This document shows positions 39,827 to 50,978 of a stretch of DNA of 64,000 bases, piece after piece. The translations under genes and the position numbers were made by a program. How positions within the stretch are numbered: the first letter of the stretch is position 1; each line of letters starts with the position of its first letter. The notes under the pieces are model-generated. The model was not told the DNA's origin, searched no databases, and saw nothing but the letters and a program-made list of their open reading frames with translations. This DNA comes from Escherichia coli (GTDB lineage Bacteria; Pseudomonadota; Gammaproteobacteria; Enterobacterales; Enterobacteriaceae), in the NCBI RefSeq assembly GCF_048403405.1, contig NZ_CP183129.1. One strand, written 5' to 3'.

Positions 39827-41494
39827 GTGGCTCAATTCGTTTATACCATGCATCGTGTCGGCAAAGTTGTTCCGACGAAACGTCATATTTTGAAAAACAT
39901 CTCTCTGAGTTTCTTCCCTGGGGCAAAAATTGGTGTCCTGGGTCTGAACGGCGCGGGTAAGTCCACCCTGCTGCGCATTATGGCGGGCATTGATAAAGAC
40001 ATCGAAGGCGAAGCGCGTCCGCAACCGGATATCAAGATTGGTTATCTGCCGCAGGAACCGCAGCTGAACCCGGAACACACCGTGCGTGAGTCCATTGAAG
40101 AAGCGGTTTCTGAAGTGGTTAACGCCCTGAAACGCCTGGATGAAGTGTATGCGCTGTACGCCGATCCGGATGCCGATTTTGACAAGCTGGCCGCTGAACA
40201 AGGCCGTCTGGAAGAGATCATTCAGGCTCACGACGGTCACAACCTGAACGTTCAGCTGGAGCGTGCGGCGGATGCGCTGCGTCTGCCGGACTGGGACGCG
40301 AAAATCGCTAACCTCTCCGGTGGTGAGCGTCGTCGCGTGGCGTTGTGCCGCCTGCTGCTGGAAAAACCAGACATGCTGCTGCTCGACGAACCGACGAACC
40401 ACCTGGATGCCGAATCCGTGGCGTGGCTGGAACGCTTCCTGCACGACTTCGAAGGCACCGTTGTGGCGATTACCCACGACCGTTACTTCCTCGATAACGT
40501 GGCGGGCTGGATCCTCGAACTGGACCGTGGTGAAGGTATTCCGTGGGAAGGTAACTACTCCTCCTGGCTGGAGCAGAAAGATCAACGTCTGGCGCAGGAA
40601 GCTTCACAAGAAGCTGCGCGTCGTAAGTCGATTGAGAAAGAGCTGGAGTGGGTACGTCAGGGGACTAAAGGCCGTCAGTCGAAAGGTAAAGCACGTCTGG
40701 CGCGTTTTGAAGAGCTGAACAGCACCGAATATCAGAAACGTAACGAAACCAACGAACTGTTTATTCCACCGGGACCGCGTCTTGGCGATAAAGTGCTGGA
40801 AGTCAACAACCTGCGTAAATCCTACGGTGATCGCCTGCTGATTGATGACCTGAGCTTCTCGATCCCGAAAGGGGCAATCGTCGGGATCATCGGTCCGAAC
40901 GGCGCGGGTAAATCGACCCTGTTCCGTATGATCTCTGGTCAGGAACAGCCGGACAGTGGCACCATCACTTTAGGTGAAACGGTGAAACTGGCATCGGTTG
41001 ATCAGTTCCGTGACTCAATGGATAACAGCAAAACCGTTTGGGAAGAAGTTTCCGGCGGGCTGGATATCATGAAAATCGGCAACACCGAGATGCCAAGCCG
41101 CGCCTACGTTGGCCGCTTTAACTTTAAAGGGGTTGATCAGGGTAAACGCGTTGGTGAACTCTCCGGCGGTGAGCGCGGTCGTCTGCATCTGGCGAAGCTG
41201 CTGCAAGTTGGCGGCAACATGCTGCTGCTCGACGAACCAACCAACGACCTGGATATCGAAACCCTGCGCGCGCTGGAAAACGCCCTGCTGGAGTTCCCGG
41301 GCTGCGCGATGGTTATCTCGCACGACCGTTGGTTCCTCGACCGTATCGCCACGCACATCCTGGACTACCAGGATGAAGGTAAAGTTGAGTTCTTCGAAGG
41401 TAACTTTACCGAGTACGAAGAGTACAAGAAACGTACGCTGGGCGCAGACGCGCTGGAGCCGAAGCGTATCAAGTACAAGCGTATTGCGAAGTAA
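39827..41494 (+). CDS. ettA: energy-dependent translational throttle ABC-F protein
   Basis: 555 aa with two ABC cassettes, MAQFVYTMHRVGKVVP... Confidence 0.95.
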   Translation: MAQFVYTMHRVGKVVPTKRHILKNISLSFFPGAKIGVLGLNGAGKSTLLRIMAGIDKDIEGEARPQPDIKIGYLPQEPQLNPEHTVRESIEEAVSEVVNALKRLDEVYALYADPDADFDKLAAEQGRLEEIIQAHDGHNLNVQLERAADALRLPDWDAKIANLSGGERRRVALCRLLLEKPDMLLLDEPTNHLDAESVAWLERFLHDFEGTVVAITHDRYFLDNVAGWILELDRGEGIPWEGNYSSWLEQKDQRLAQEASQEAARRKSIEKELEWVRQGTKGRQSKGKARLARFEELNSTEYQKRNETNELFIPPGPRLGDKVLEVNNLRKSYGDRLLIDDLSFSIPKGAIVGIIGPNGAGKSTLFRMISGQEQPDSGTITLGETVKLASVDQFRDSMDNSKTVWEEVSGGLDIMKIGNTEMPSRAYVGRFNFKGVDQGKRVGELSGGERGRLHLAKLLQVGGNMLLLDEPTNDLDIETLRALENALLEFPGCAMVISHDRWFLDRIATHILDYQDEGKVEFFEGNFTEYEEYKKRTLGADALEPKRIKYKRIAK

Positions 41495-41505
41495 TGCGTA
41501 AAATG

Positions 41506-41538
41506 CCGGATGCGGCGCGCCAGCATCGCATCCGGTAT
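41506..41538. repeat. REP-like palindromic element downstream of ettA
   Basis: gccggatgcggcgcgccagcatcgcatccgg imperfect palindrome of REP type. Confidence 0.45.
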
Positions 41539-41648
41539 TAGTTAAATGATTAGTCCCCGGAAAAGGCAGAATTTTCTTTAAGCGTATTAGCTCAGATGCG
41601 GACTGACATCTCAAATCAAGCGGGAACTCATGGTTCCCGCTTAACGTT

Positions 41649-42536
41649 TTATTCACCGCGCAGGATCTGGCGGAAATGGGAAACCAGCGGACGTTGGTTG
41701 GCTTTATGCCAGGCTGCCCATAATTGCGTTGAATAATTCATCCACGGCAATTCACGTAATACCACCCCTTCCGGCGCATTATGACGAAGACTATGTTGAA
41801 TTAAGGCCAGACCTAATCCCGCAGCGACCAGACCTAATGCCGTGAGGGGTTCACCAGCTTCCAGGCGAATATCAGGATTAAACCCGGCATTAACACAGGC
41901 GGCGACAAAATGATCGCGAGAATGCGCATCGTCGTTATGAATCACCGCAATCCACTGCTCATCGCCAAGTTGTGACGCGACAAGGTTTTCCTCCTGCGCC
42001 AGAGGATGATTTTGCGGTAAGGCCAACAACATTCGATCATCCAGAACCTGAATATATTCCAGATCCTGCTCGCTGTCGGTGGGCGGCGTATCGACCAGAG
42101 AAAAATCGAGACTGCGCTGGCGAAGGCCTTCAATCTGGGTCGCCGGTGGTTGGCTGTAAAGTGCGATATGCACATTCGGACGCGATACACGTAACGTACG
42201 TAGCGCCGTAGAAAGCACACCGGAATGCATGGCGTTTTCGATATAGCCAATACACAAGCCACCATCTTCCCCCCGTCCCAGGCGTTTGCCTAACGACTCC
42301 AGGCGGTTGGCGTGTGTCAGCAACGAACGTGTTTCGGCAAGGAATGTCTGTCCATCAGCGGTCAGGCGAATGCGCTGCTGATTACGCTCAAACAGCGTCA
42401 GCCCCAGCCGTTCTTCCAGTTGCGCAATCTGGCGGCTCAGCGGTGATTGCGAGATATGTAATCGCTCGGCTGCGCGTCCCACGTGCTCTTCTTCTGCGAC
42501 CACCACGAAGTACTTCAGTTGGCGTAAATCAATCAT
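41649..42536 (-). CDS. LysR-family transcriptional regulator
   Basis: Track ORF 41649..42665; probable start MIDLRQLKYFVVVAEEEHVGRAAERLHISQSPLSRQIAQLE (HTH) 43 codons in; divergent from the reductase genes. Confidence 0.8.
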   Translation of the reverse strand: MIDLRQLKYFVVVAEEEHVGRAAERLHISQSPLSRQIAQLEERLGLTLFERNQQRIRLTADGQTFLAETRSLLTHANRLESLGKRLGRGEDGGLCIGYIENAMHSGVLSTALRTLRVSRPNVHIALYSQPPATQIEGLRQRSLDFSLVDTPPTDSEQDLEYIQVLDDRMLLALPQNHPLAQEENLVASQLGDEQWIAVIHNDDAHSRDHFVAACVNAGFNPDIRLEAGEPLTALGLVAAGLGLALIQHSLRHNAPEGVVLRELPWMNYSTQLWAAWHKANQRPLVSHFRQILRGE

Positions 42537-42668
42537 GTTAGACCTCAAAGGACTTAAGTCAGACAAATTATGTCCTATCAAGTCATAACCTCGCAAGGTA
42601 TTGTGATCCACGTCACAGGGCAATAGCAAAAAACGCCCGAACCCAAACCGAATAATTGAGGACATCTT

Positions 42669-43679
42669 ATGAGCATCAAAAATTTACTTCCCGGCAAAAT
42701 TGGCTTAGGCGGCGCACCACTCGGCAACATGTTCCGTGCCATTCCGGAAGAAGAGGCCCACGCCACCGTGAGCGAAGCCTGGAACCTGGGTGTGCGTTAC
42801 TTTGATACCGCGCCGCTGTACGGCTCTGGCCTTTCTGAAATCCGCATGGGTGAAGCGCTGTCTCAGTATCCACGCGATGAATACGTTCTGAGTAGCAAAG
42901 TCGGTCGCATCATGCTGGACGAAATGGAAGATCCGGCAAAACGGGATTTCGGTGAAAAAGGTGGCCTGTTCGAACACGGCCTGAAAAACAAAATTCTGAA
43001 TGACTACTCTGCTGACGCCACGCTGCGCTCGATTGAAGACAGCCTGAAACGCCTGAAAACAGATCGTCTGGATATTGTCTGGATCCACGACCCGGCGCAG
43101 GACTTCTACGGTGACAGCTGGCTGGAACAGTTCAACATAGCCCGTACCGGTGCGTTTCGTGCGCTGACGCGTTTGCGTGACGAAGGTGTGATTAAAGCCT
43201 GGGGACTGGGTGTGAATCGCGTCGAACCTTGCGAACTGACGCTGGCGCTGGACGAACCGAAGCCGGATGCGTTCCTGCTGGCGGGGCGTTATTCCCTGCT
43301 GGATCACGAACGTGCGCTGCAACGCCTGATGCCAGAAGCACTGGAACAGAACGTGGATATTGTTGTGGGCGGTCCGTACAGCTCTGGCGTACTGGCAGGC
43401 GGCGAGCACTTTGAATATCAGAAAGCTTCTGCGGCCATCCAGCAGAAAGTGGCGCAAATTAACGCCATTGCCACACGTTTCAATGTGAACGTTAAAGCAG
43501 CTGCGCTGCAGTTCGCGCTGGCAAACCCGGCCGTTGCAGCGGTTATTCCTGGCTCCAGCCGTCCTGGCCGTATGGCAGAAGATCTGGCTGCACTGAATGC
43601 GCCTGTTCCGGCTGAATTCTGGGCAGAAATGCGCCGTCAAAATCTGGTTGCGGAAAACGCTCCGCTGCCGACCCGTTAA
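42669..43679 (+). CDS. aldo-keto reductase family oxidoreductase
   Basis: 336 aa; AKR features (YFDTAPLYG, IHDP) in translation. Confidence 0.8.
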   Translation: MSIKNLLPGKIGLGGAPLGNMFRAIPEEEAHATVSEAWNLGVRYFDTAPLYGSGLSEIRMGEALSQYPRDEYVLSSKVGRIMLDEMEDPAKRDFGEKGGLFEHGLKNKILNDYSADATLRSIEDSLKRLKTDRLDIVWIHDPAQDFYGDSWLEQFNIARTGAFRALTRLRDEGVIKAWGLGVNRVEPCELTLALDEPKPDAFLLAGRYSLLDHERALQRLMPEALEQNVDIVVGGPYSSGVLAGGEHFEYQKASAAIQQKVAQINAIATRFNVNVKAAALQFALANPAVAAVIPGSSRPGRMAEDLAALNAPVPAEFWAEMRRQNLVAENAPLPTR

Positions 43680-43698
43680 TCAACCTGGTGAGAAAACG

Positions 43699-44496
43699 AT
43701 GAAACTGGATCTGACAGGTAAAGTCGCGGTGGTCAGCGGCTCAACCTCCGGCATTGGGCAGGGTATCGCCGCCGGACTGGCAAAAGCAGGCGCAACGGTG
43801 GTTGTCGTCGGCCGTAAACAGCGCGGCGTTGATGATGCCATGGCTGCGATTGCGGCACAAACTCCCACGGCGTCACTGCGTGGCGTGGTGGCCGATCTCA
43901 GCACCGAAGACGGCGTGGCTGCGCTGATCGCTGCAGTCCCAACGGCTGATGTGCTGGTCAATAATCTGGGCATTTTTAACGATAAAGATTTCTTTAGCGT
44001 TCCGGATGATGAGTGGATGCACTTCTATAACGTCAACGTCCTCTCCGGCGTTCGTCTGGCGCGTCACTATGCGCCAGGCATGACGGAACAGGGCTGGGGG
44101 CGGATTATCTTTGTCTCGTCCGAATCCGGCGTGGCAATTCCTGGCGACATGATCAACTACGGCGTCACCAAAGCTGCGAATCTGGCGGTCTCTCATGGTC
44201 TGGCGAAACGACTGGCGGGGACCGGTGTGACCGTCAACGCCATTCTGCCAGGGCCAACCTTTACCGATGGCCTGAAAGAGATGCTGGCGGATGCCGCTGC
44301 ACAATCGGGACGCAGTGCGCGTGAACAGGCCGATGAGTTTGTTAAAACCTCACGTCCGAGCTCCATCATCCAGCGTGCGGCAGAGGTGGAAGAAGTGGCG
44401 AATCTGGCGGTTTATCTCGCGTCACCGCTTTCCTCGGCAACCACAGGGGCAGCCCTGCGCGTCGATGGCGGCGTCGTCGACACCCTGACAATGTAA
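43699..44496 (+). CDS. short-chain dehydrogenase/reductase (SDR)
   Basis: Start MKLDLTGKVAVVSGSTSGIGQ (TGxxxGxG Rossmann motif) 34 codons into track ORF 43597..44496. Confidence 0.8.
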   Translation: MKLDLTGKVAVVSGSTSGIGQGIAAGLAKAGATVVVVGRKQRGVDDAMAAIAAQTPTASLRGVVADLSTEDGVAALIAAVPTADVLVNNLGIFNDKDFFSVPDDEWMHFYNVNVLSGVRLARHYAPGMTEQGWGRIIFVSSESGVAIPGDMINYGVTKAANLAVSHGLAKRLAGTGVTVNAILPGPTFTDGLKEMLADAAAQSGRSAREQADEFVKTSRPSSIIQRAAEVEEVANLAVYLASPLSSATTGAALRVDGGVVDTLTM

Positions 44497-44521
44497 CCCT
44501 ATAAATTAAGAGAAAATTATC

Positions 44522-44938
44522 ATGGCTAAAACAACTGTATCGATCGAAATTCCGGCTTCTGCCGACGCCGTATGGCAATTGATGGGCGGCTTTGATGCGC
44601 TGCCTGACTGGCTGCCGTTCATCCCGAAAAGCGTAGTGACAGAAGGAGGTCGCGTTCGTTCGCTGACAACCTCTGACGGCGGCACTGTGGTTGAACGTCT
44701 GGAAGCGTTTGATAACCGTCAACGCAGTTATACCTATTCCATTATTCAGGCACCGTTCCCGGTGGTGGATTACCTCTCCACCATTACCGTTCATGAAACC
44801 GCCGACAGCCAGGTTTCCCGTGTGGAATGGTTCGGTGAATTCACCCCGGTGAATGTGACGAACGAAGAGGCCGAAGCGCTGTTTACCGGCATCTATCGGG
44901 ATGGTCTCAAGGCGCTAAAGGACAACTTTGTTGCCTGA
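44522..44938 (+). CDS. SRPBCC / polyketide-cyclase-like small protein
   Basis: 138-aa ORF co-oriented 25 bp after the SDR gene; family assignment by general resemblance only. Confidence 0.5.
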   Translation: MAKTTVSIEIPASADAVWQLMGGFDALPDWLPFIPKSVVTEGGRVRSLTTSDGGTVVERLEAFDNRQRSYTYSIIQAPFPVVDYLSTITVHETADSQVSRVEWFGEFTPVNVTNEEAEALFTGIYRDGLKALKDNFVA

Positions 44939-45095
44939 TGCGATCGACAGGCGTCGGAACGTCCGGCGTCTGATTATTAACAAAAACAGAATAGTCTATT
45001 GCCATTTGTATCATTTATGTTATCAGGCAGCAGGCGTATTCTCTCCCCATCGCGTTAATAAACGCCAAACAATTAAGACACTCTGGAATATAAAC

Positions 45096-45308
45096 ATGAA
45101 AACGATCATCGCAATTTTTACAGCTTCTCTTTTCTCTGTCGCGGCGTTTAACGCATCGGCACAAAGCGTGACAGCAACCGGTACAACACTGGATTCTGCG
45201 GAAGCGGTTATTGCGCAGAAAGCGAAAGAGATGAACGCCTCTGAATATAAAATTACCAGCGCTCGCATGGGCAATACCGTCACCATGAGCGCCGAACTGT
45301 ACAAATAA
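45096..45308 (+). CDS. DUF1471 (BhsA/YdgH-like) small secreted protein
   Basis: 70 aa with signal peptide MKTIIAIFTASLFSVAAFNASA and ...GNTVTMSAELYK C-terminus typical of the family. Confidence 0.55.
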   Translation: MKTIIAIFTASLFSVAAFNASAQSVTATGTTLDSAEAVIAQKAKEMNASEYKITSARMGNTVTMSAELYK

Positions 45309-45356
45309 CCGCGCGAGGGACCCATTACGTAATTTGCTAAATATGCGCTGAATGCG

Positions 45357-45500
45357 TTGCCATTAAAAAACCGTATTGTAATGCCACCGATGACACGTTC
45401 TCGCGCGGGTGCGGGTGACGTTGCGATTGACATGATGGCGGAGTATTACGCGCAGCGCGCCAGTGCAGGACTTATCATCAGCGAAGGTACGCAAATCAGC
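45357..45500 (+). pseudogene. N-terminal remnant of an Old-Yellow-Enzyme / NemA-like NADH:flavin oxidoreductase
   Basis: LKNRIVMPPMTRSRA...AEYYAQRASAGLIISEGTQIS matches the OYE N-terminus, then the frame degenerates and stops. Confidence 0.5.
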
Positions 45501-45774
45501 AGAAGCGCTGCGCATAATTTTCCATGGCACGCTGATTTACTCCGGTAAATACACCAAAGCGCGCGCCGAAGCGGACTGTCAGATTTGATTGCATTTTGGC
45601 TACGCAACCGGTCAGTTGGAGTATGAAGTTGCTCACGAATAGCCTTAGCATCCGCAATTTCGTAGTGGGTCACCCGTGCAGGTTCTTTCTAATCTCAACA
45701 GCCTCTTCCAGAGAGGTTTTCAACTCATCAAAAAAACTCAATTTATACCTCGCCTTTGAGCCGTTTCGTCACGG

Positions 45775-47007
45775 TTATCTTTGCTCCCCCATCATCTCCC
45801 GCACAAGTTCCACGCAGCGCAGGAAACGGCTGTCGTAATCGTCCTCTTCAACCCGCACGAATTCGATATTGTTCTCTTCCAGCATCTCCACCAGCAAGTT
45901 CTGGAACTCTTTGCGATCCACCGAACTGCCGAGGCTGCGTAAACCATCCGCCACCCAAGGGGTGTTGTTCTCCAGCAAGATAACCAGATCAAAACGGTAT
46001 TCATCGATCAGCGCCTGCACGAACGGATGCTCCCGCCCTTCGTACTTTTTGCAGAACGCCTGGGTAGTGACAAAATCAGTGTCGATAAACGCCACTTTAT
46101 TGGCGTATTTCACTGCAAAATCAATATATTGCGCGTGTCCTAGCGCGATTTTATCGTAGTCGGAATACTGCAATGCGATCTCATCACCGCCAAGGTGTGA
46201 AAAGACATAATCGCGACCATATTCCCACGCACTGGTGGTATTGAAGATATTGGCAAGTTTGTTTACCAGGGTGGATTTACCGCTCGACTCGCCGCCAAGG
46301 ATCGCCACGGTACGCACAAAGAACGGCTTCACTTCGGTGGGAATATATTCCCAGTAGCGGAACGGGTTTTCGCGGATCTGCGCACCGCTGATACTCATAA
46401 AGGTGCGTTTCGGATCGACCAGCACCGTTTCGATCCCCAGATGTTCCATATACTGTGGCGCATCGGCTTCTTCCGAGGTGTAGATCAGGTCCGGCTGGAT
46501 CCCCTTTTCAGCCATAAACTTTTTGATGCCGTTGCTCCATACATCCCAGCCGTGCGGATATGGCTCCATGCCCTCTTCATTGAAAGCATGAATACGGATA
46601 TTTTTCTGATATTTAAAGGTTTGCAATAACCAGCGCAGACGATCCGGCACGGTGGGCTGCTGCGACATGGCGCTGTCTTCAAACAACGCGCGGTCGCGGG
46701 TATCGTCAAACCCCATAATGATATGCAGCTCGTCAACCTGGCTACAGGCGCGCTGGATAAGGTAGATATGTCCGGTATGCAGCGGGTAGAACTTACCGAA
46801 TACCACACCGATCGTTTTCTTCTGCCGGGGAAACTCAAGCCCTAAAAAACGGTGCAACGCCTCCAGCTTTTGCGCGCTGGGGCTTTTAATTTTGGCATTC
46901 AGTAACTGGCTTAAATACCCTTTGGTCATACCGCTGGCATCAGCTACCTGCTGTAGCGTGCAGCCCTGTTGCTTGATGGCAGTTTTCAGGTAATCAAATG
47001 ACGACAT
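45775..47007 (-). CDS. nadR: NMN adenylyltransferase / ribosylnicotinamide kinase / NAD regulator
   Basis: Track ORF 45775..47028; MSSFDYLKTAIKQQGCTLQQVADASGMTKGYLSQLL starts 7 codons in. Confidence 0.95.
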   Translation of the reverse strand: MSSFDYLKTAIKQQGCTLQQVADASGMTKGYLSQLLNAKIKSPSAQKLEALHRFLGLEFPRQKKTIGVVFGKFYPLHTGHIYLIQRACSQVDELHIIMGFDDTRDRALFEDSAMSQQPTVPDRLRWLLQTFKYQKNIRIHAFNEEGMEPYPHGWDVWSNGIKKFMAEKGIQPDLIYTSEEADAPQYMEHLGIETVLVDPKRTFMSISGAQIRENPFRYWEYIPTEVKPFFVRTVAILGGESSGKSTLVNKLANIFNTTSAWEYGRDYVFSHLGGDEIALQYSDYDKIALGHAQYIDFAVKYANKVAFIDTDFVTTQAFCKKYEGREHPFVQALIDEYRFDLVILLENNTPWVADGLRSLGSSVDRKEFQNLLVEMLEENNIEFVRVEEDDYDSRFLRCVELVREMMGEQR

Positions 47008-49427: not shown

Positions 49428-49542
49428 TAAGGCTCCTGTAAAATCGTTCGAAGCAGGGAAAATAACGCATGAGGCTACCTTGTATCCATTGCTTCTGGCA
49501 ACATTAAGTCTCAAATTGTACTGACCCCAAAAAGTTGGACAG

Positions 49543-50394
49543 TTAAACACGAGGCATATAGGTCTGATTCCGATATTCAATTGGAGTCAGACCTTTTAAT
49601 TTCAGGCTAATTCTTCTGCTGTTGTAGTATTCAATATATTCCGTAACAGCATCCTTCAGTTCGCTTATATTACTGAACTCATCAAGATAAAAACACTCCG
49701 ACTTTAAGGTTCCAAAGAAACACTCCACCACAGCATTATCCAGACAATTGCCTTTTCTGGACATGCTTTGTTTAATACCATGTTCTTTAAGGATATTTTG
49801 ATATCTTCTCATACGATACTGCCATCCCTGGTCAGAGTGCAGAACAGGATGCTCGTGAGGATTAAGCTTTTTGAATGCCTGATCGAGCATATTCTCAACC
49901 ATGTTCATCACTGGTCTTTCCGAAAGGCTGTAAGAAATAACTTCGTTGTTGAAGAGATCTATTACTGGAGACAAATACAGCTTGCGCCCATTGACTACAA
50001 ATTCAGTAACATCGGTAACCCACTTCTCGTTTGGCCGCGTAGCCTTGAAATCTCTTTGGAGAACATTAGGGGCGGTTTGCCCTACCTCTCCTCTGTAAGA
50101 GCGGTATCGCTTGACCTTAATCGCTGCTTTAAGTGAGAGGGTTCCCATCAGGCGCTGAACAGCTTTATGGTTAATCTGTTTCCCTTCTCGATGAAGAGAC
50201 AGCGTTACCCTACGGTATCCGTATCGGCCTCTATTCTCGTGATAAATCTCACCAATACGCTTTTTAACGTCCGCATACTTGTCAGGCTTGCTGAGAGCCT
50301 TTAGATGGTAATAAAACGTACTGCGCGGTATCTCCGCAGCCCTGAGAAGCTCATCAAGAGGATAAAACTGCCTTAGCTCGTTGAGTACTTTTAC
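49543..50394 (-). CDS. insK: IS150 transposase orfB (DDE domain), expressed as orfAB fusion by -1 frameshift
   Basis: Frame lacks an ATG for its first ~80 codons; track lists only the distal 201 aa; overlaps orfA stop. Confidence 0.85.
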
Positions 50395-50912
50395 TTTTTC
50401 GTGGGATGAGCTAAGGCTTTCAGCTTTTTTAGATACATAAGCCGCGTTTCAAGAAATCGAACTTGCCTTTCAAGATCCTCAATGCGTCGGTCTTTTGACA
50501 GCTCCAATGCTGATGCCGCTTTTTCTGGATCAACTGATATTGCAATGTTTCTTTTGGTGCCAATCTTGAGCGCGCGTAAACCAGCTTCTCCGCGCTCTTC
50601 ATAGACCTTCAGCCACCTGGCTACAGAACCACTACCAGCAAGCATAAAGTGAGCAGCAGCCTGATTAAGGGACATGTGCTGCTCGATCACAGCTTTCACG
50701 ACCTTAATACGCAACTCTGGATCAGCACTAACGCCTTTAGGTTTGGGAATTAAACCTTTTTCTCCATGTTTTTCATAGAGGGCAACCCATGTCCTGACCT
50801 GGGTTCGGGGGACACCAAAACGTGCCGAGATGATCCTGTAACCATCATCAGTTGTGAAGTAGTGATTCACGACTTCAAGGCGCTTTTCAAAAGGGTATTT
50901 TGGCTTTGACAT
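50391..50912 (-). CDS. insJ: IS150 transposase orfA (HTH)
   Basis: 173 aa MSKPKYPFEKRLEVVNHYFTTDDGYRIISARFGVPRTQVRTWV... Confidence 0.9.
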   Translation of the reverse strand: MSKPKYPFEKRLEVVNHYFTTDDGYRIISARFGVPRTQVRTWVALYEKHGEKGLIPKPKGVSADPELRIKVVKAVIEQHMSLNQAAAHFMLAGSGSVARWLKVYEERGEAGLRALKIGTKRNIAISVDPEKAASALELSKDRRIEDLERQVRFLETRLMYLKKLKALAHPTKK

Positions 50913-50978
50913 ATTAGGGGCTATTCCATTTCATCGTCCAACAAAATGGGTGCAGTACAAATTTTCAAAGGGTGGAAG

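Follow-up and report, generated by a model that had tools for sequence, protein, structure and literature searches.

An accessory operon combining a LysR-type regulator with aldo-keto reductase, short-chain dehydrogenase and SRPBCC genes between ettA and nadR of Escherichia coli

In Escherichia coli K-12, the LysR-type regulator gene yafC lies divergent from the aldo-keto reductase (AKR) gene dkgB; yqhC-yqhD-dkgA combines a regulator with aldehyde reductases and is induced by reactive aldehydes; and nemRA-gloA, an electrophile response, brings together the TetR-type regulator NemR, the Old-Yellow-Enzyme (OYE) NemA and glyoxalase I. Here we compare with these systems a group of genes located between ettA and nadR in a window of 64,000 nucleotides from the E. 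coli contig NZ_CP183129.1, where a divergent LysR gene is followed by genes for an AKR, a short-chain dehydrogenase/reductase (SDR), an SRPBCC protein and a DUF1471 protein, and then by an OYE remnant. With moderate confidence, we read this block as a self-contained accessory operon rather than a mobile element, one that would be LysR-activated and carbonyl-reducing, probably at the expense of NADPH, with the SRPBCC protein as a ligand-binding partner. The existence of the block is confirmed; it is maintained by selection and occurs widely in other bacteria, but as an ordinary accessory operon it does not represent a novel type of system.

The gene layout proposed in a first-pass annotation, with the LysR gene facing a co-oriented string, was confirmed by profile searches and by the RefSeq gene calls for identical DNA in strain MS 69-1, and its AKR, SDR, SRPBCC, DUF1471 and OYE domain assignments were all upheld. 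Its statement that ettA and nadR are nearly adjacent in K-12 was also correct: in MG1655, the two genes are separated by 307 bp of REP-filled DNA without an annotated feature, and the block, looked up at that position, is absent. Because homology with K-12 stops at 41519 and resumes at 45638, the accessory segment spans 41520-45637 (4,118 bp). Directly past the ettA stop is a REP-like palindrome (41502..41539; fold -27.5 kcal/mol, z=-3.9) that contains the exact REP head GCCGGATGCGGCG at 41505-41517, so that the REP element previously placed at the ettA-side junction was right in substance. The K-12 breakpoint falls inside this palindrome, and the canonical REP of the K-12 spacer opens with the same bases. 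The adjoining junction DNA (41520..41615) occurs only where the block lies between ettA and nadR in E. coli, being absent from K-12 and from block copies at other loci; homology with the copies in E. coli E69, E. whittamii and Citrobacter starts at 41616-41647. A strong, terminator-like hairpin at 41618..41642, 7 nt past the LysR stop, folds on both strands (-17.4 kcal/mol, z=-5.7 on the plus strand; -20.0 kcal/mol, z=-6.8 on the minus strand) and marks where the transferable block begins on its left side, homology with the copies at other loci starting there. On the right, the junction DNA (45575..45637) is common to longer E. coli variants (+GNAT, +wHTH/TauE), not to K-12. The nadS pseudogene remnant adjoining nadR (45623..45741, minus strand; 'NadS family protein, frameshifted, incomplete' in RefSeq for MS 69-1) belongs to the backbone rather than to the block because most of it, from 45638 on, is also found in K-12, with the homologous sequence visible in the K-12 spacer.

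Among 5,426 complete E. coli genomes, 482 (8.9%) carry the block, always on the chromosome, in one copy and at the ettA-nadR locus. Citrobacter and other Escherichia lineages carry it at different loci: in E69, where it adjoins yhiN, the block is 97.5% identical to that of E. coli and the core DNA about 94%, and in E. whittamii neither ettA nor nadR is nearby. No integrase, insertion sequence (IS), tRNA gene or flanking repeats were found at the block, and its GC content does not deviate markedly, so that the earlier term 'island' was too strong. E. coli would have acquired the block only once, at the spacer between ettA and nadR with its many REP sequences, through homologous or illegitimate recombination, with no element-encoded mechanism.

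Judged by gene order, the conserved unit is LysR<->AKR-(SDR)-SRPBCC. The order LysR<->AKR-SDR-SRPBCC is kept across Enterobacterales, Acinetobacter and many Pseudomonas, and this synteny holds in most of 80 species-representative genomes, the exceptions being a few in which the SDR is missing or the contig ends within the cassette. An SDR-less form is present in Burkholderiales and Streptomyces, the minimal LysR<->AKR-SRPBCC triad was seen in Massilia, P. gingeri, Streptomyces, Caballeronia and one metagenomic contig, and AKR-SRPBCC and SRPBCC-SDR pairs occur in further, distant contexts. Between E. coli and Pseudomonas, LysR, AKR and SDR are 65-78% identical (AKR, 74-78%; LysR, 70-75% in most of the listed species and 65-75% overall), and SRPBCC 53-68%; the LysR gene is divergent from the AKR gene in all Pseudomonas listed. 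The dN/dS values of 0-0.14 over the five intact genes show strong purifying selection (LysR, 0.014-0.05; AKR, 0-0.04 against enterobacterial orthologues).

The regulator (295 aa; 41649..42536, minus strand; WP_000566334.1) has full-length matches to many LTTR models, such as AlsR, PRK09986 and HcaR, all under the equivalog cut-offs, and its orthologues contain PF00126 and PF03466. A mechanical ORF list gives it a frame of 338 aa, which overextends the gene; orthologues and RefSeq agree on a start at 42536. Between the LysR and AKR genes lies a divergent promoter/operator region of 132 bp (42537..42668), with a near-invariant block of about 45 bp at about 42541-42584 that is kept from E. coli to Pseudomonas, Massilia and one Streptomyces. 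It contains GAC/GTC triplets phased by about 10 bp (GACT, 42551-42554; ATTATGTC, 42568-42574; GTC, 42582-42584), and no clean T-N11-A dyad could be assigned in it. In an alignment of 21 genera (A1), columns C19, C20, G27, C29, T30, A32, A33, A43, T45-C50, T52 and G58 are invariant, and the near-invariant T75, A76 and T80 reproduce the TA...T pattern of a -10 hexamer. The region has back-to-back promoter-like elements: a consensus scan predicts a minus-strand lysR promoter (-35 TTGCGA, 42596-42591; -10 CATAAT, 42572-42567), and a plus-strand -10 for the AKR gene (TATTGT, 42599-42604) is inferred, that promoter not having been called by the scan. From position and conservation, the regulator would be expected to bind the conserved block, to repress its own promoter and, once bound by a small-molecule inducer, either the substrate of the enzymes or its product, to activate the AKR promoter.

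The AKR, SDR and SRPBCC genes form a tight set with spacers of 19 and 25 nt. The AKR (336 aa; 42669..43679, plus strand) matches PF00248 (Aldo_ket_red) over residues 10-322 (E=1e-44) and has all motifs of the catalytic tetrad (D46, Y51, K77, H140). As YdjG, DkgA or DkgB, it scores only 28-71 bits against cut-offs of 327-550. The second enzyme (265 aa; 43699..44496, plus strand; NCBIfam SDR models) is a classical SDR with the motifs G14xxxG18xG20, N88NLG, S141 and Y154xxxK158 and an intact S-Y-K triad; R39 and K40 follow strand beta-2, which we take to be an NADP(H) signature. Both enzymes would reduce the carbonyl group or groups of the inducer compound. The opposite direction of catalysis is central to another, unlikely interpretation, namely, that the cassette is a small module by which a compound resembling a sugar is catabolized or salvaged. 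The AKR would then oxidize an aldose at C1, in the manner of L-galactose, L-fucose and D-threo-aldose 1-dehydrogenases, a ketose or polyol would be interconverted by the SDR, as by sorbose reductase, and LysR would sense the sugar or its lactone. The closest solved relatives of the AKR are indeed plant L-galactose dehydrogenases (E=2e-29 to 1e-18), an analogy with oxidative sugar 1-dehydrogenases that counts against a reductive role; one database source gives the exact protein the automated name 'D-threo-aldose 1-dehydrogenase', and the nearest functionally named structure of the SDR after its orthologue is NADPH-dependent L-sorbose reductase (3AI1-3), an analogy that likewise speaks against detoxification. 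However, the AKR similarity is remote, with the top-scoring stretches spanning the N-terminal 70 residues only, and the Arg/Lys signature of the SDR is more typical of reductive use; the SRPBCC fold, which accommodates hydrophobic ligands, has no known role in sugar oxidation, and a survey of about 90 loci in many genera revealed no conserved transporter, lactonase, dehydratase, kinase or aldolase, nor any other recurrent pathway enzyme, beside the cassette.

The SRPBCC/Bet v1-like protein (138 aa; 44522..44938, plus strand) belongs to Pfam Polyketide_cyc2 (PF10604, E=1.9e-30) and has no signal peptide. It matches two structural-genomics entries, PDB 3CNW ('XoxI', E=4e-52) and 3F08 (E=1e-50), and its conserved polar residues are S37, R46, E58, R59, Y70, Y72 and Y84. 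In the carbonyl-reduction reading, this cytoplasmic protein would bind, deliver or isomerize a probably hydrophobic ligand. It is, moreover, the constant partner in distant lineages, linked to an AKR alone, an SDR alone or both, an observation that also fits a cassette that processes or senses a specific hydrophobic signal or natural product, with no bulk detoxification, the SRPBCC protein being a specific binder or isomerase and the reductases modifying the bound ketone. There are precedents for such partnerships: in opium poppy, PR10/Bet v1-like proteins act with the AKR codeinone reductase, and type II polyketide pathways pair a ketoreductase with an SRPBCC cyclase. The marginal match to the PYR/PYL abscisic-acid receptors (E about 1e-3) points the same way, and the four proteins and the operator are unusually conserved across Proteobacteria (the LysR proteins of E. 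coli and Pseudomonas share about 72% identity), which speaks for one defined ligand rather than a broad substrate range. Nevertheless, conservation alone fits detoxification of one common metabolite equally well, and no biosynthetic (PKS, ACP, NRPS) or signaling genes are linked to the cassette at the loci examined; we consider a specific-ligand role decidedly unlikely. Downstream of the SRPBCC gene, a hairpin followed by AUUAUU (44948..44972, plus strand; -17.9 kcal/mol, z=-2.45) probably ends the transcript of akr, sdr and srpbcc, if weakly so, because the consensus scan did not call it as a terminator.

The remaining genes are enterobacterial add-ons outside the conserved module. The DUF1471 gene (70 aa; 45096..45308, plus strand) encodes a small secreted protein of the YdgH/BhsA/McbA family with sub-threshold matches to the BhsA, RclB, YhcN and YbiJ models and with orthologues that contain PF07338. 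It begins 157 nt past the SRPBCC gene and, because this gap and the hairpin precede it, is probably a transcription unit of its own, a stress-protein unit added later. It follows the cassette in Citrobacter, Klebsiella, Yersinia, Raoultella and Yokenella and is missing from that of Enterobacter, Serratia, Acinetobacter and Pseudomonas. The OYE fragment (45327..45574, plus strand) was correctly identified in the first-pass annotation, aligning with positions 17-66 of the NCBIfam N-ethylmaleimide reductase (NemA) model (E=2.5e-15), but it is a multiply disrupted pseudogene, not a live enzyme. Compared with the intact 365-aa gene of E. coli E69 (L012 12659-13756) and with C. farmeri, its start is changed from ATG to ACG and its second codon is TAA, both read directly from the sequence, a frame-shifting internal deletion of 686 bp lies at 45500/45501, with the identical breakpoint in two further copies (L004 and L005), and the 3' end is gone. 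In all 482 E. coli carriers among complete genomes, coverage of the region of the intact gene stays below 80%, and the OYE gene of E. whittamii has an independent 638-bp deletion. Because the gene is dead in 482/482 carriers, the 'AKR + SDR + OYE' logic once proposed for the block does not apply to any complete E. coli genome; the ene-reductase is defunct here, although Citrobacter, Yokenella and one divergent Escherichia lineage have it alongside the cassette.

The OYE and nadS pseudogenes on the right side of the block, its absence from about 91% of complete E. coli genomes, and variants with an internal deletion (an SDR/SRPBCC fusion in strain E300010) or with IS1397, IS200 and IS1 insertions might suggest that what E. 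coli retains is the decaying remainder of a formerly larger region, without function. We find this extremely improbable: the other five ORFs are undamaged and vary little or not at all among carriers, dN/dS is 0-0.05 in comparison with E69 and 0.015-0.08 in comparison with Citrobacter, the promoter/operator block is intact, and OYE is the sole gene lost, twice independently, which indicates selective loss of one gene rather than general decay.

For the accessory operon that we favor, the most likely role would be to dispose of a carbonyl compound that is reactive or toxic, be it an aldehyde, ketone, dicarbonyl or quinone derivative. Electrophile, quinone or aldehyde detoxification is a plausible and reasonable guess, based on the chemistry typical of these enzyme families and on a weak association with neighbors in Providencia (an LLM oxidoreductase, an OYE, an MFS efflux pump and an MDR similar to quinone oxidoreductases) and Acinetobacter (a nitroreductase, a TetR regulator and an SDR). 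An intact NemA-like OYE next to the cassette in Citrobacter, Yokenella and E69 is a further neighbor of the detoxification type; such neighbors are lineage-specific and could be coincidental. A literature search found no functional study of the cassette's inducer, substrate or phenotype.

Comparison with characterized relatives places the cassette among, and apart from, several systems. To plant L-galactose dehydrogenases and bacterial D-threo-aldose (L-fucose) 1-dehydrogenases, its AKR bears a remote, partial likeness that does not establish membership, and no sugar-pathway genes are linked to it. The SRPBCC protein shares the Polyketide_cyc2 fold family with the Bacillus structures 3CNW (B. 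cereus) and 3F08, to which no function is attached and, unlike the periplasmic MxaD of the same MxaD/PYR-PYL/Bet v1 fold class, lacks a signal peptide. The SDR is orthologous over its full length to an Acinetobacter baumannii SDR (PDB 8G9M, A0A0D5YL95; E=5.5e-138). The one paper found on a component of the cassette describes the structure of this SDR, gives its natural substrate as unknown and, in the passages searched, makes no mention of an operon (PMC10889901). In both Acinetobacter genomes of our set, A. higginsii and an Acinetobacter MAG (L026, L028), the SDR gene lies within LysR<->AKR-SDR-SRPBCC. As in nemRA-gloA, a NemA-like OYE stands beside the cassette of Citrobacter, Yokenella and Escherichia E69; with the NemA subfamily model, the intact copy reaches 396 bits, under the cut-off of 403, and ene-reduction followed by carbonyl reduction would fit such a combination. 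Unlike nemRA-gloA, the cassette has a LysR-type rather than a TetR-type regulator and no glyoxalase, and its OYE, a pseudogene in all complete E. coli carriers, lies outside the conserved core. Further counterparts are yafC-dkgB and yqhC-yqhD-dkgA, from which the cassette differs in an AKR that is not DkgA, DkgB or YdjG and in a regulator that matches no named equivalog, but with which it shares a transcription factor beside carbonyl reductases, in the cassette probably NADPH-dependent, and a presumed role in reactive-carbonyl metabolism. With yafC-dkgB, it also has in common the divergent LysR<->AKR layout, to which, unlike either system, it adds an SDR and an SRPBCC protein, as an accessory unit in E. 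coli.

Between ettA (39827-41494, plus strand) and nadR (45775-47007, minus strand), the window carries genes for a LysR-type regulator (41649-42536, minus strand) and, all on the plus strand, an aldo-keto reductase (AKR; 42669-43679), a classical SDR (43699-44496), an SRPBCC (Polyketide_cyc2) protein (44522-44938) and a DUF1471/YdgH-BhsA family protein (45096-45308). A fragment of an Old-Yellow-Enzyme (OYE) gene comes next, and then, directly upstream of nadR, a truncated nadS pseudogene remnant annotated as "NadS family protein" (45623-45741, minus strand). A mechanical ORF listing, NCBIfam, Pfam and the RefSeq annotation of identical DNA agree on this content, and therefore, the genes and coordinates listed in the first-pass annotation, which saw here a LysR-regulated redox/detoxification island, are correct; that observation is confirmed, and the interpretation attached to it is supported in part. 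The window is E. coli DNA, and its 4.5 kb from 41400 to 45900 match six complete E. coli chromosomes, those of MS 69-1 and TUM14771 among them, at 100% identity; a search of 41300-46000 against Rfam at E<=0.1 returned no RNA family.

The block, that is, the DNA from the LysR gene to the OYE remnant, is accessory in E. coli, as anticipated from the near adjacency of ettA and nadR in K-12. In K-12 MG1655, 307 bp lie between these genes; this spacer has no annotated feature and consists of REP sequences and the same nadS remnant. When the K-12 locus is compared with the window by BLAST, homology ends at 41519 and resumes at 45638, which defines an accessory segment of 4,118 bp (41520-45637) in place of 135 bp of K-12 REP sequence. 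A REP element does lie at the ettA-side junction, as proposed: an exact head, GCCGGATGCGGCG, at 41505-41517, with no second exact match in the 64-kb window, sits inside an extragenic palindrome of -27.5 kcal/mol, the canonical K-12 REPs at the same place start with identical bases, and the K-12 breakpoint falls within the window's element, the second arm of which is atypical, being an inverted REP-head-like sequence instead of the usual tail. The N-terminal coding sequence of nadS (MSFFDELKTSLEEAVE...) can also be recognized in the K-12 spacer (~6560-6695 of the extracted K-12 locus), where it carries no annotation; the remnant in the window starts with TTG, not ATG. Another segment missing from K-12, at 49518-50957 (1.44 kb, between serB and smp/ytjB), is AT-rich (GC 0.39-0.44); two minus-strand ORFs, one orfA-like (173 aa) and one integrase-core (201 aa), make up an IS3-family transposase pair, and we read the segment as an IS insertion.

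Exactly 482 of the 5,426 complete E. coli genomes contain the interior of the block, in a single chromosomal copy at 98.0-100% identity, and a query extended into the ends of ettA and nadR recovers the same 482 genomes in one contiguous match, so that the block is always found at this locus. Among the carriers are O145:H28 strains and many isolates of human clinical origin. Twenty-one carriers possess an additional wHTH and TauE/SafE gene pair on the right-hand side of the OYE remnant, and 20 have an extra GNAT gene; IS1397, IS200 or IS1 insertions occur in some carriers, and in one strain, the SDR and SRPBCC genes are fused by deletion. The GNAT segment (5535-6260 of its variant locus) and the wHTH-TauE/SafE segment (5537-7117 of its own) share an insertion point at window ~45570, with a 4-bp overlap at the junction with the common form. 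The ettA-nadR spacer is thus a multi-state polymorphism, with a REP cluster only, the block, the block with GNAT, the block with wHTH/TauE, and IS insertions as its states.

The OYE gene is a pseudogene. Intact NemA-like genes of 365-366 aa are located 3' of the DUF1471 gene in Citrobacter farmeri, Yokenella and E69 (a divergent lineage of Escherichia under the label E. coli E69), whose product scores 396 bits against a cut-off of 403 for the NemA model. Aligned to these intact genes, the window copy has ACG in place of the ATG start at 45327, TAA as the second codon, and a frame-shifting internal deletion of 686 bp between 45500 and 45501; homology stops at 45574, ~55 codons short of the stop, the 3' end being gone. 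What survives corresponds to positions 17-66 of the model and to 74 bp from the vicinity of codon 287, and there is no intact Oxidored_FMN TIM-barrel ORF of ~365 aa. The deletion breakpoint is identical in both longer E. coli variants, and coverage of the intact gene region stays at or below 30% in all 482 carriers. In E. whittamii, a deletion of 638 bp, with other breakpoints than those in E. coli, arose independently in the same gene. OYE has therefore been lost twice in Escherichia, with the neighboring genes intact.

The description of the block as an island, in the sense of a mobile segment, does not hold up. Neither the ORF listing nor the RefSeq annotation contains an integrase, transposase or tRNA gene within 41495-45774, a search for direct or inverted repeats bounding the block yielded short chance matches only, and its GC content (0.48-0.60) is not deviant from that of the flanks (0.50-0.59). 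A plasmid search detected no enterobacterial plasmid copy except for one 331-kb Ewingella replicon, the other matches being chromid-sized Burkholderiales replicons and large replicons listed as Streptomyces plasmids. What supports a horizontal origin is the patchy distribution of the block together with the different loci it occupies in relatives: it adjoins uspA-uspB-pitA-yhiN in E69, lies at a third locus in E. whittamii, and has an EamA gene and a GntR/SIS/PfkB cluster as neighbors in C. farmeri. The left edge common to several of these loci is a hairpin at 41618-41642. The core DNA of E69 shows ~94% identity to every E. coli genome; for the block, the value is 97.5%, with dS of 0.07-0.13. 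In E. whittamii, dS is ~0.08 for LysR, AKR and SDR, but 0.33 for SRPBCC and 0.56 for DUF1471, a mosaic suggestive of recombination within the block. Together, the E69 and E. whittamii comparisons point to probable exchange of the block by recombination among Escherichia lineages after their divergence. The left junction and the OYE deletion are the same in all E. coli carriers, a pattern that fits a single arrival in E. coli, at the REP-rich ettA-nadR spacer.

The AKR encoded in the block matches PF00248 (E=1e-44, residues 10-322), with a catalytic tetrad, D46, Y51, K77 and H140, in the expected motifs FDTA, LYG, SSKVG and WIHD, as assigned from knowledge of the superfamily rather than from structural alignment. 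The name "methylglyoxal reductase" in some database records is unsupported because the protein scores far under the cut-offs of the NCBIfam equivalogs (YdjG, 71 vs 550; DkgB, 38 vs 327; DkgA, 28 vs 425); its closest solved relatives are plant L-galactose dehydrogenases (E=2e-29). The SDR contains the classical motifs GSTSGIG (14-20), NNLG (88-91), S141 and Y154-x3-K158, matches many SDR models with E down to 1e-45, and has Arg39/Lys40 following strand beta-2, which we take to be a signature of NADP(H) preference. The crystal structure of its Acinetobacter baumannii orthologue has been solved (8G9M, E=5.5e-138), the natural substrate being reported as unknown by its authors (PMC10889901). The SRPBCC protein is a helix-grip superfamily member (PF10604, Polyketide_cyc2, E=1.9e-30, residues 1-136), and the name "MxaD/XoxI" that some records give it is unsupported by model scores or localisation. 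Its solved homologues, 3CNW and 3F08, are both Bacillus structural-genomics entries, for which we know of no published function. 3CNW comes from B. cereus, and the second-best solved relative of the SDR, 3T4X, from B. anthracis. The assignment of the small protein to DUF1471 is supported at the family level by PF07338 in orthologues, the RefSeq name and a signal-like N-terminal sequence read from the translation; against the named equivalogs BhsA, RclB, YhcN and YbiJ, it reaches 26-31 bits vs cut-offs of 90-125.

Pairwise Nei-Gojobori dN/dS values for the five intact genes are 0-0.05 against the E69 copy, 0.015-0.08 against C. farmeri and 0.014-0.11 against K. pneumoniae and Yersinia frederiksenii. 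These selection data contradict the notion that the block is a functionless relic, which we consider exceedingly improbable. The spacers of 19 nt between AKR and SDR and 25 nt between SDR and SRPBCC indicate that these three genes form one operon. The DUF1471 gene, preceded by a 157-nt gap and by a hairpin at 44948-44972 (-17.9 kcal/mol), is probably a separate transcription unit.

In the scan for AKR with one genome per species, 571 relatives were found, of which the best 80 were examined for identity and synteny. Among these 80, AKR identity is 90-100% in Escherichia, Trabulsiella, Yokenella, Yersinia and Raoultella, 84-87% in Serratia, Providencia, Xenorhabdus and Ewingella, 85-86% in Acinetobacter, 74-78% in more than 50 Pseudomonas species, and 75% in Duganella, Massilia and one Streptomyces. 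Searches of these 80 loci with all block proteins (tblastn) place, in most of them, LysR on the opposite strand, ending ~130 bp upstream of AKR, SDR at ~+1,020 and SRPBCC at ~+1,840. For most Pseudomonas species, LysR is ~70-75% identical, SDR 69-74% and SRPBCC 53-68%. Klebsiella pneumoniae and Enterobacter cloacae possess the same four genes, in still other chromosomal contexts. The triad of LysR divergent from AKR-SRPBCC, without SDR, occurs in P. gingeri, Massilia, Streptomyces sp. Ru62, a Caballeronia megaplasmid and a metagenomic contig, and more distant SRPBCC relatives lie beside an AKR without a LysR gene or beside an SDR. DUF1471 is found 3' of the cassette, as we denote the conserved LysR/AKR/(SDR)/SRPBCC unit, only in some Enterobacterales, and OYE in Escherichia, Citrobacter and Yokenella; in Providencia, OYE lies another ~3.4 kb downstream. 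In P. alcalifaciens, a redox-rich run extends from +3.3 to +8 kb from the AKR start, with a TIGR03571 (BA3436-family, named after a Bacillus anthracis gene) LLM oxidoreductase, a Cmx/AraJ-like MFS efflux pump, an intact NemA-like OYE and a quinone-oxidoreductase-like MDR enzyme.

The triad in Streptomyces sp. Ru62 and in large Streptomyces replicons, with an AKR 75% identical to the E. coli enzyme and the proteobacterial operator motif retained, suggests that it may have passed between phyla. A 1,397-bp contig of a MAG labelled Collinsella sp. encodes an AKR with 99% identity to that of E. coli; the contig is most likely E. coli DNA that ended up in the bin of an actinobacterial MAG. The only recurrent neighbors of the cassette, histidine kinase, response regulator, DinB-like and HAD genes, were rejected as functional partners, being Pseudomonas-specific local synteny. 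The search for conserved neighbors across genera revealed no recurring transporter or additional pathway enzyme. This bears on the possibility that the cassette oxidizes a sugar or polyol, for which all that speaks is a remote similarity and an automated name; with neither a transporter nor a downstream enzyme, we regard such a function as unlikely.

The regulator has the full LTTR architecture, with an N-terminal HTH_1 and a C-terminal LysR substrate-binding domain in ~300 aa: alignments to LTTR models cover residues 1-288 of the 291 tested (E down to 7e-65), and orthologues with 92-97% identity contain PF00126 and PF03466. Every match to a named LTTR equivalog (AlsR, HcaR, OxyR, CynR and others) falls under the curated cut-off (AlsR, 219 vs 430; PRK09986, 201 vs 290). 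In an alignment of LysR-AKR intergenic regions from 21 genera, the 60 nt beside the lysR start are almost invariant from E. coli to Pseudomonas, Massilia and Streptomyces Ru62, with the consensus AGACC-N6-GGACTyAAGT-N8-ATTATGTCyT-N5-GTC at window 42541-42584. The E. coli sequence contains GAC/GTC triplets spaced ~10 bp in phase, including a GAC-N7-GTC core; no unambiguous T-N11-A dyad could be assigned in this conserved stretch. The lysR gene is divergent from the AKR operon, and the near-invariant 45-bp stretch overlaps its predicted promoter, the invariant ATTATG being the -10 (CATAAT) of a promoter-like site with TTGCGA as -35. A sigma-70 consensus scan detected no AKR promoter, and hence, its -10 was taken from cross-genus conservation: alignment columns 75-80, just past the promoter-like lysR site, show TA...T, the pattern of a -10 hexamer, almost without variation (TATTGT, 42599-42604), from which we infer an AKR promoter, P_akr, with a leader of ~57 nt. 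The conserved stretch would then lie at about -30 to -70 relative to P_akr, and the back-to-back geometry of the promoters and the position of this stretch are as expected for LTTR autorepression plus activation, with LysR predicted to bind there. A short GC-rich hairpin in the AKR leader (42605-42640 and orthologues) seems by eye to covary among genera (GGGCGAC/GTCGCCC in Klebsiella, GGGGC/GCCCC in Serratia, CAGGA/TCCTG in Providencia, GGGCG...CGCCC in Citrobacter, Klebsiella and Enterobacter), and a second, inserted hairpin is present in Klebsiella, Yersinia, Raoultella and Ewingella. We do not claim a conserved structure: RNAalifold on a MAFFT alignment gives no consensus pairs, and in E. 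coli, just 4 bp form the stem.

We favor the reading that the cassette is an inducible carbonyl-reducing detoxification operon. It is self-contained and pairs two carbonyl oxidoreductases, whose cofactor signatures are of the reductive type, with a protein of hydrophobic-ligand fold; these are joined by an ene-reductase in some lineages and, in Acinetobacter and Providencia, by nitroreductase, quinone-oxidoreductase-like, LLM and MFS-efflux genes. Taken whole, this statement seems to us evenly poised between right and wrong, its regulatory and oxidoreductase parts being much more secure than the "detoxification" label. That the cassette processes one specific hydrophobic metabolite, with the SRPBCC protein as an essential partner, we consider quite improbable. 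Doubtful, too, is a bolder proposal, that the triad, to which SDR was added in Gammaproteobacteria, is a single ancient pan-bacterial regulon for one defined carbonyl metabolite, in which SRPBCC is an obligatory catalytic (isomerase/tautomerase) or substrate-delivery partner of the reductase; to our knowledge, such a reductase-SRPBCC partnership has not been described in bacteria. If this were the case, the near-invariant operator and the 65-78% identity of LysR, AKR and SDR between E. coli and Pseudomonas (53-68% for SRPBCC) would reflect one conserved ligand. In literature searches by RefSeq protein accession, by combinations of SRPBCC, keto reductase, LysR and SDR, and by D-threo-aldose dehydrogenase together with polyketide cyclase, no study of the cassette turned up; a Burkholderia expression paper mentioning a polyketide cyclase concerns an unrelated gene.

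The importance of these findings is modest: they provide a clear anatomy and evolutionary history for an accessory operon present in ~9% of sequenced E. coli, in which the true conserved unit is the four-gene LysR/AKR/SDR/SRPBCC cassette shared with Klebsiella pneumoniae, Enterobacter, Acinetobacter and many Pseudomonas. Being compact and self-regulated, with a recognisable operator, the cassette is an easy experimental target, and an inducer/enzyme pair from it could give the first function to a bacterial SRPBCC subfamily with three solved structures. The cassette neither opens nor settles any long-standing question; the block is a newly delineated LTTR-controlled oxidoreductase operon of a familiar kind, accessory in E. 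coli and widely conserved elsewhere.
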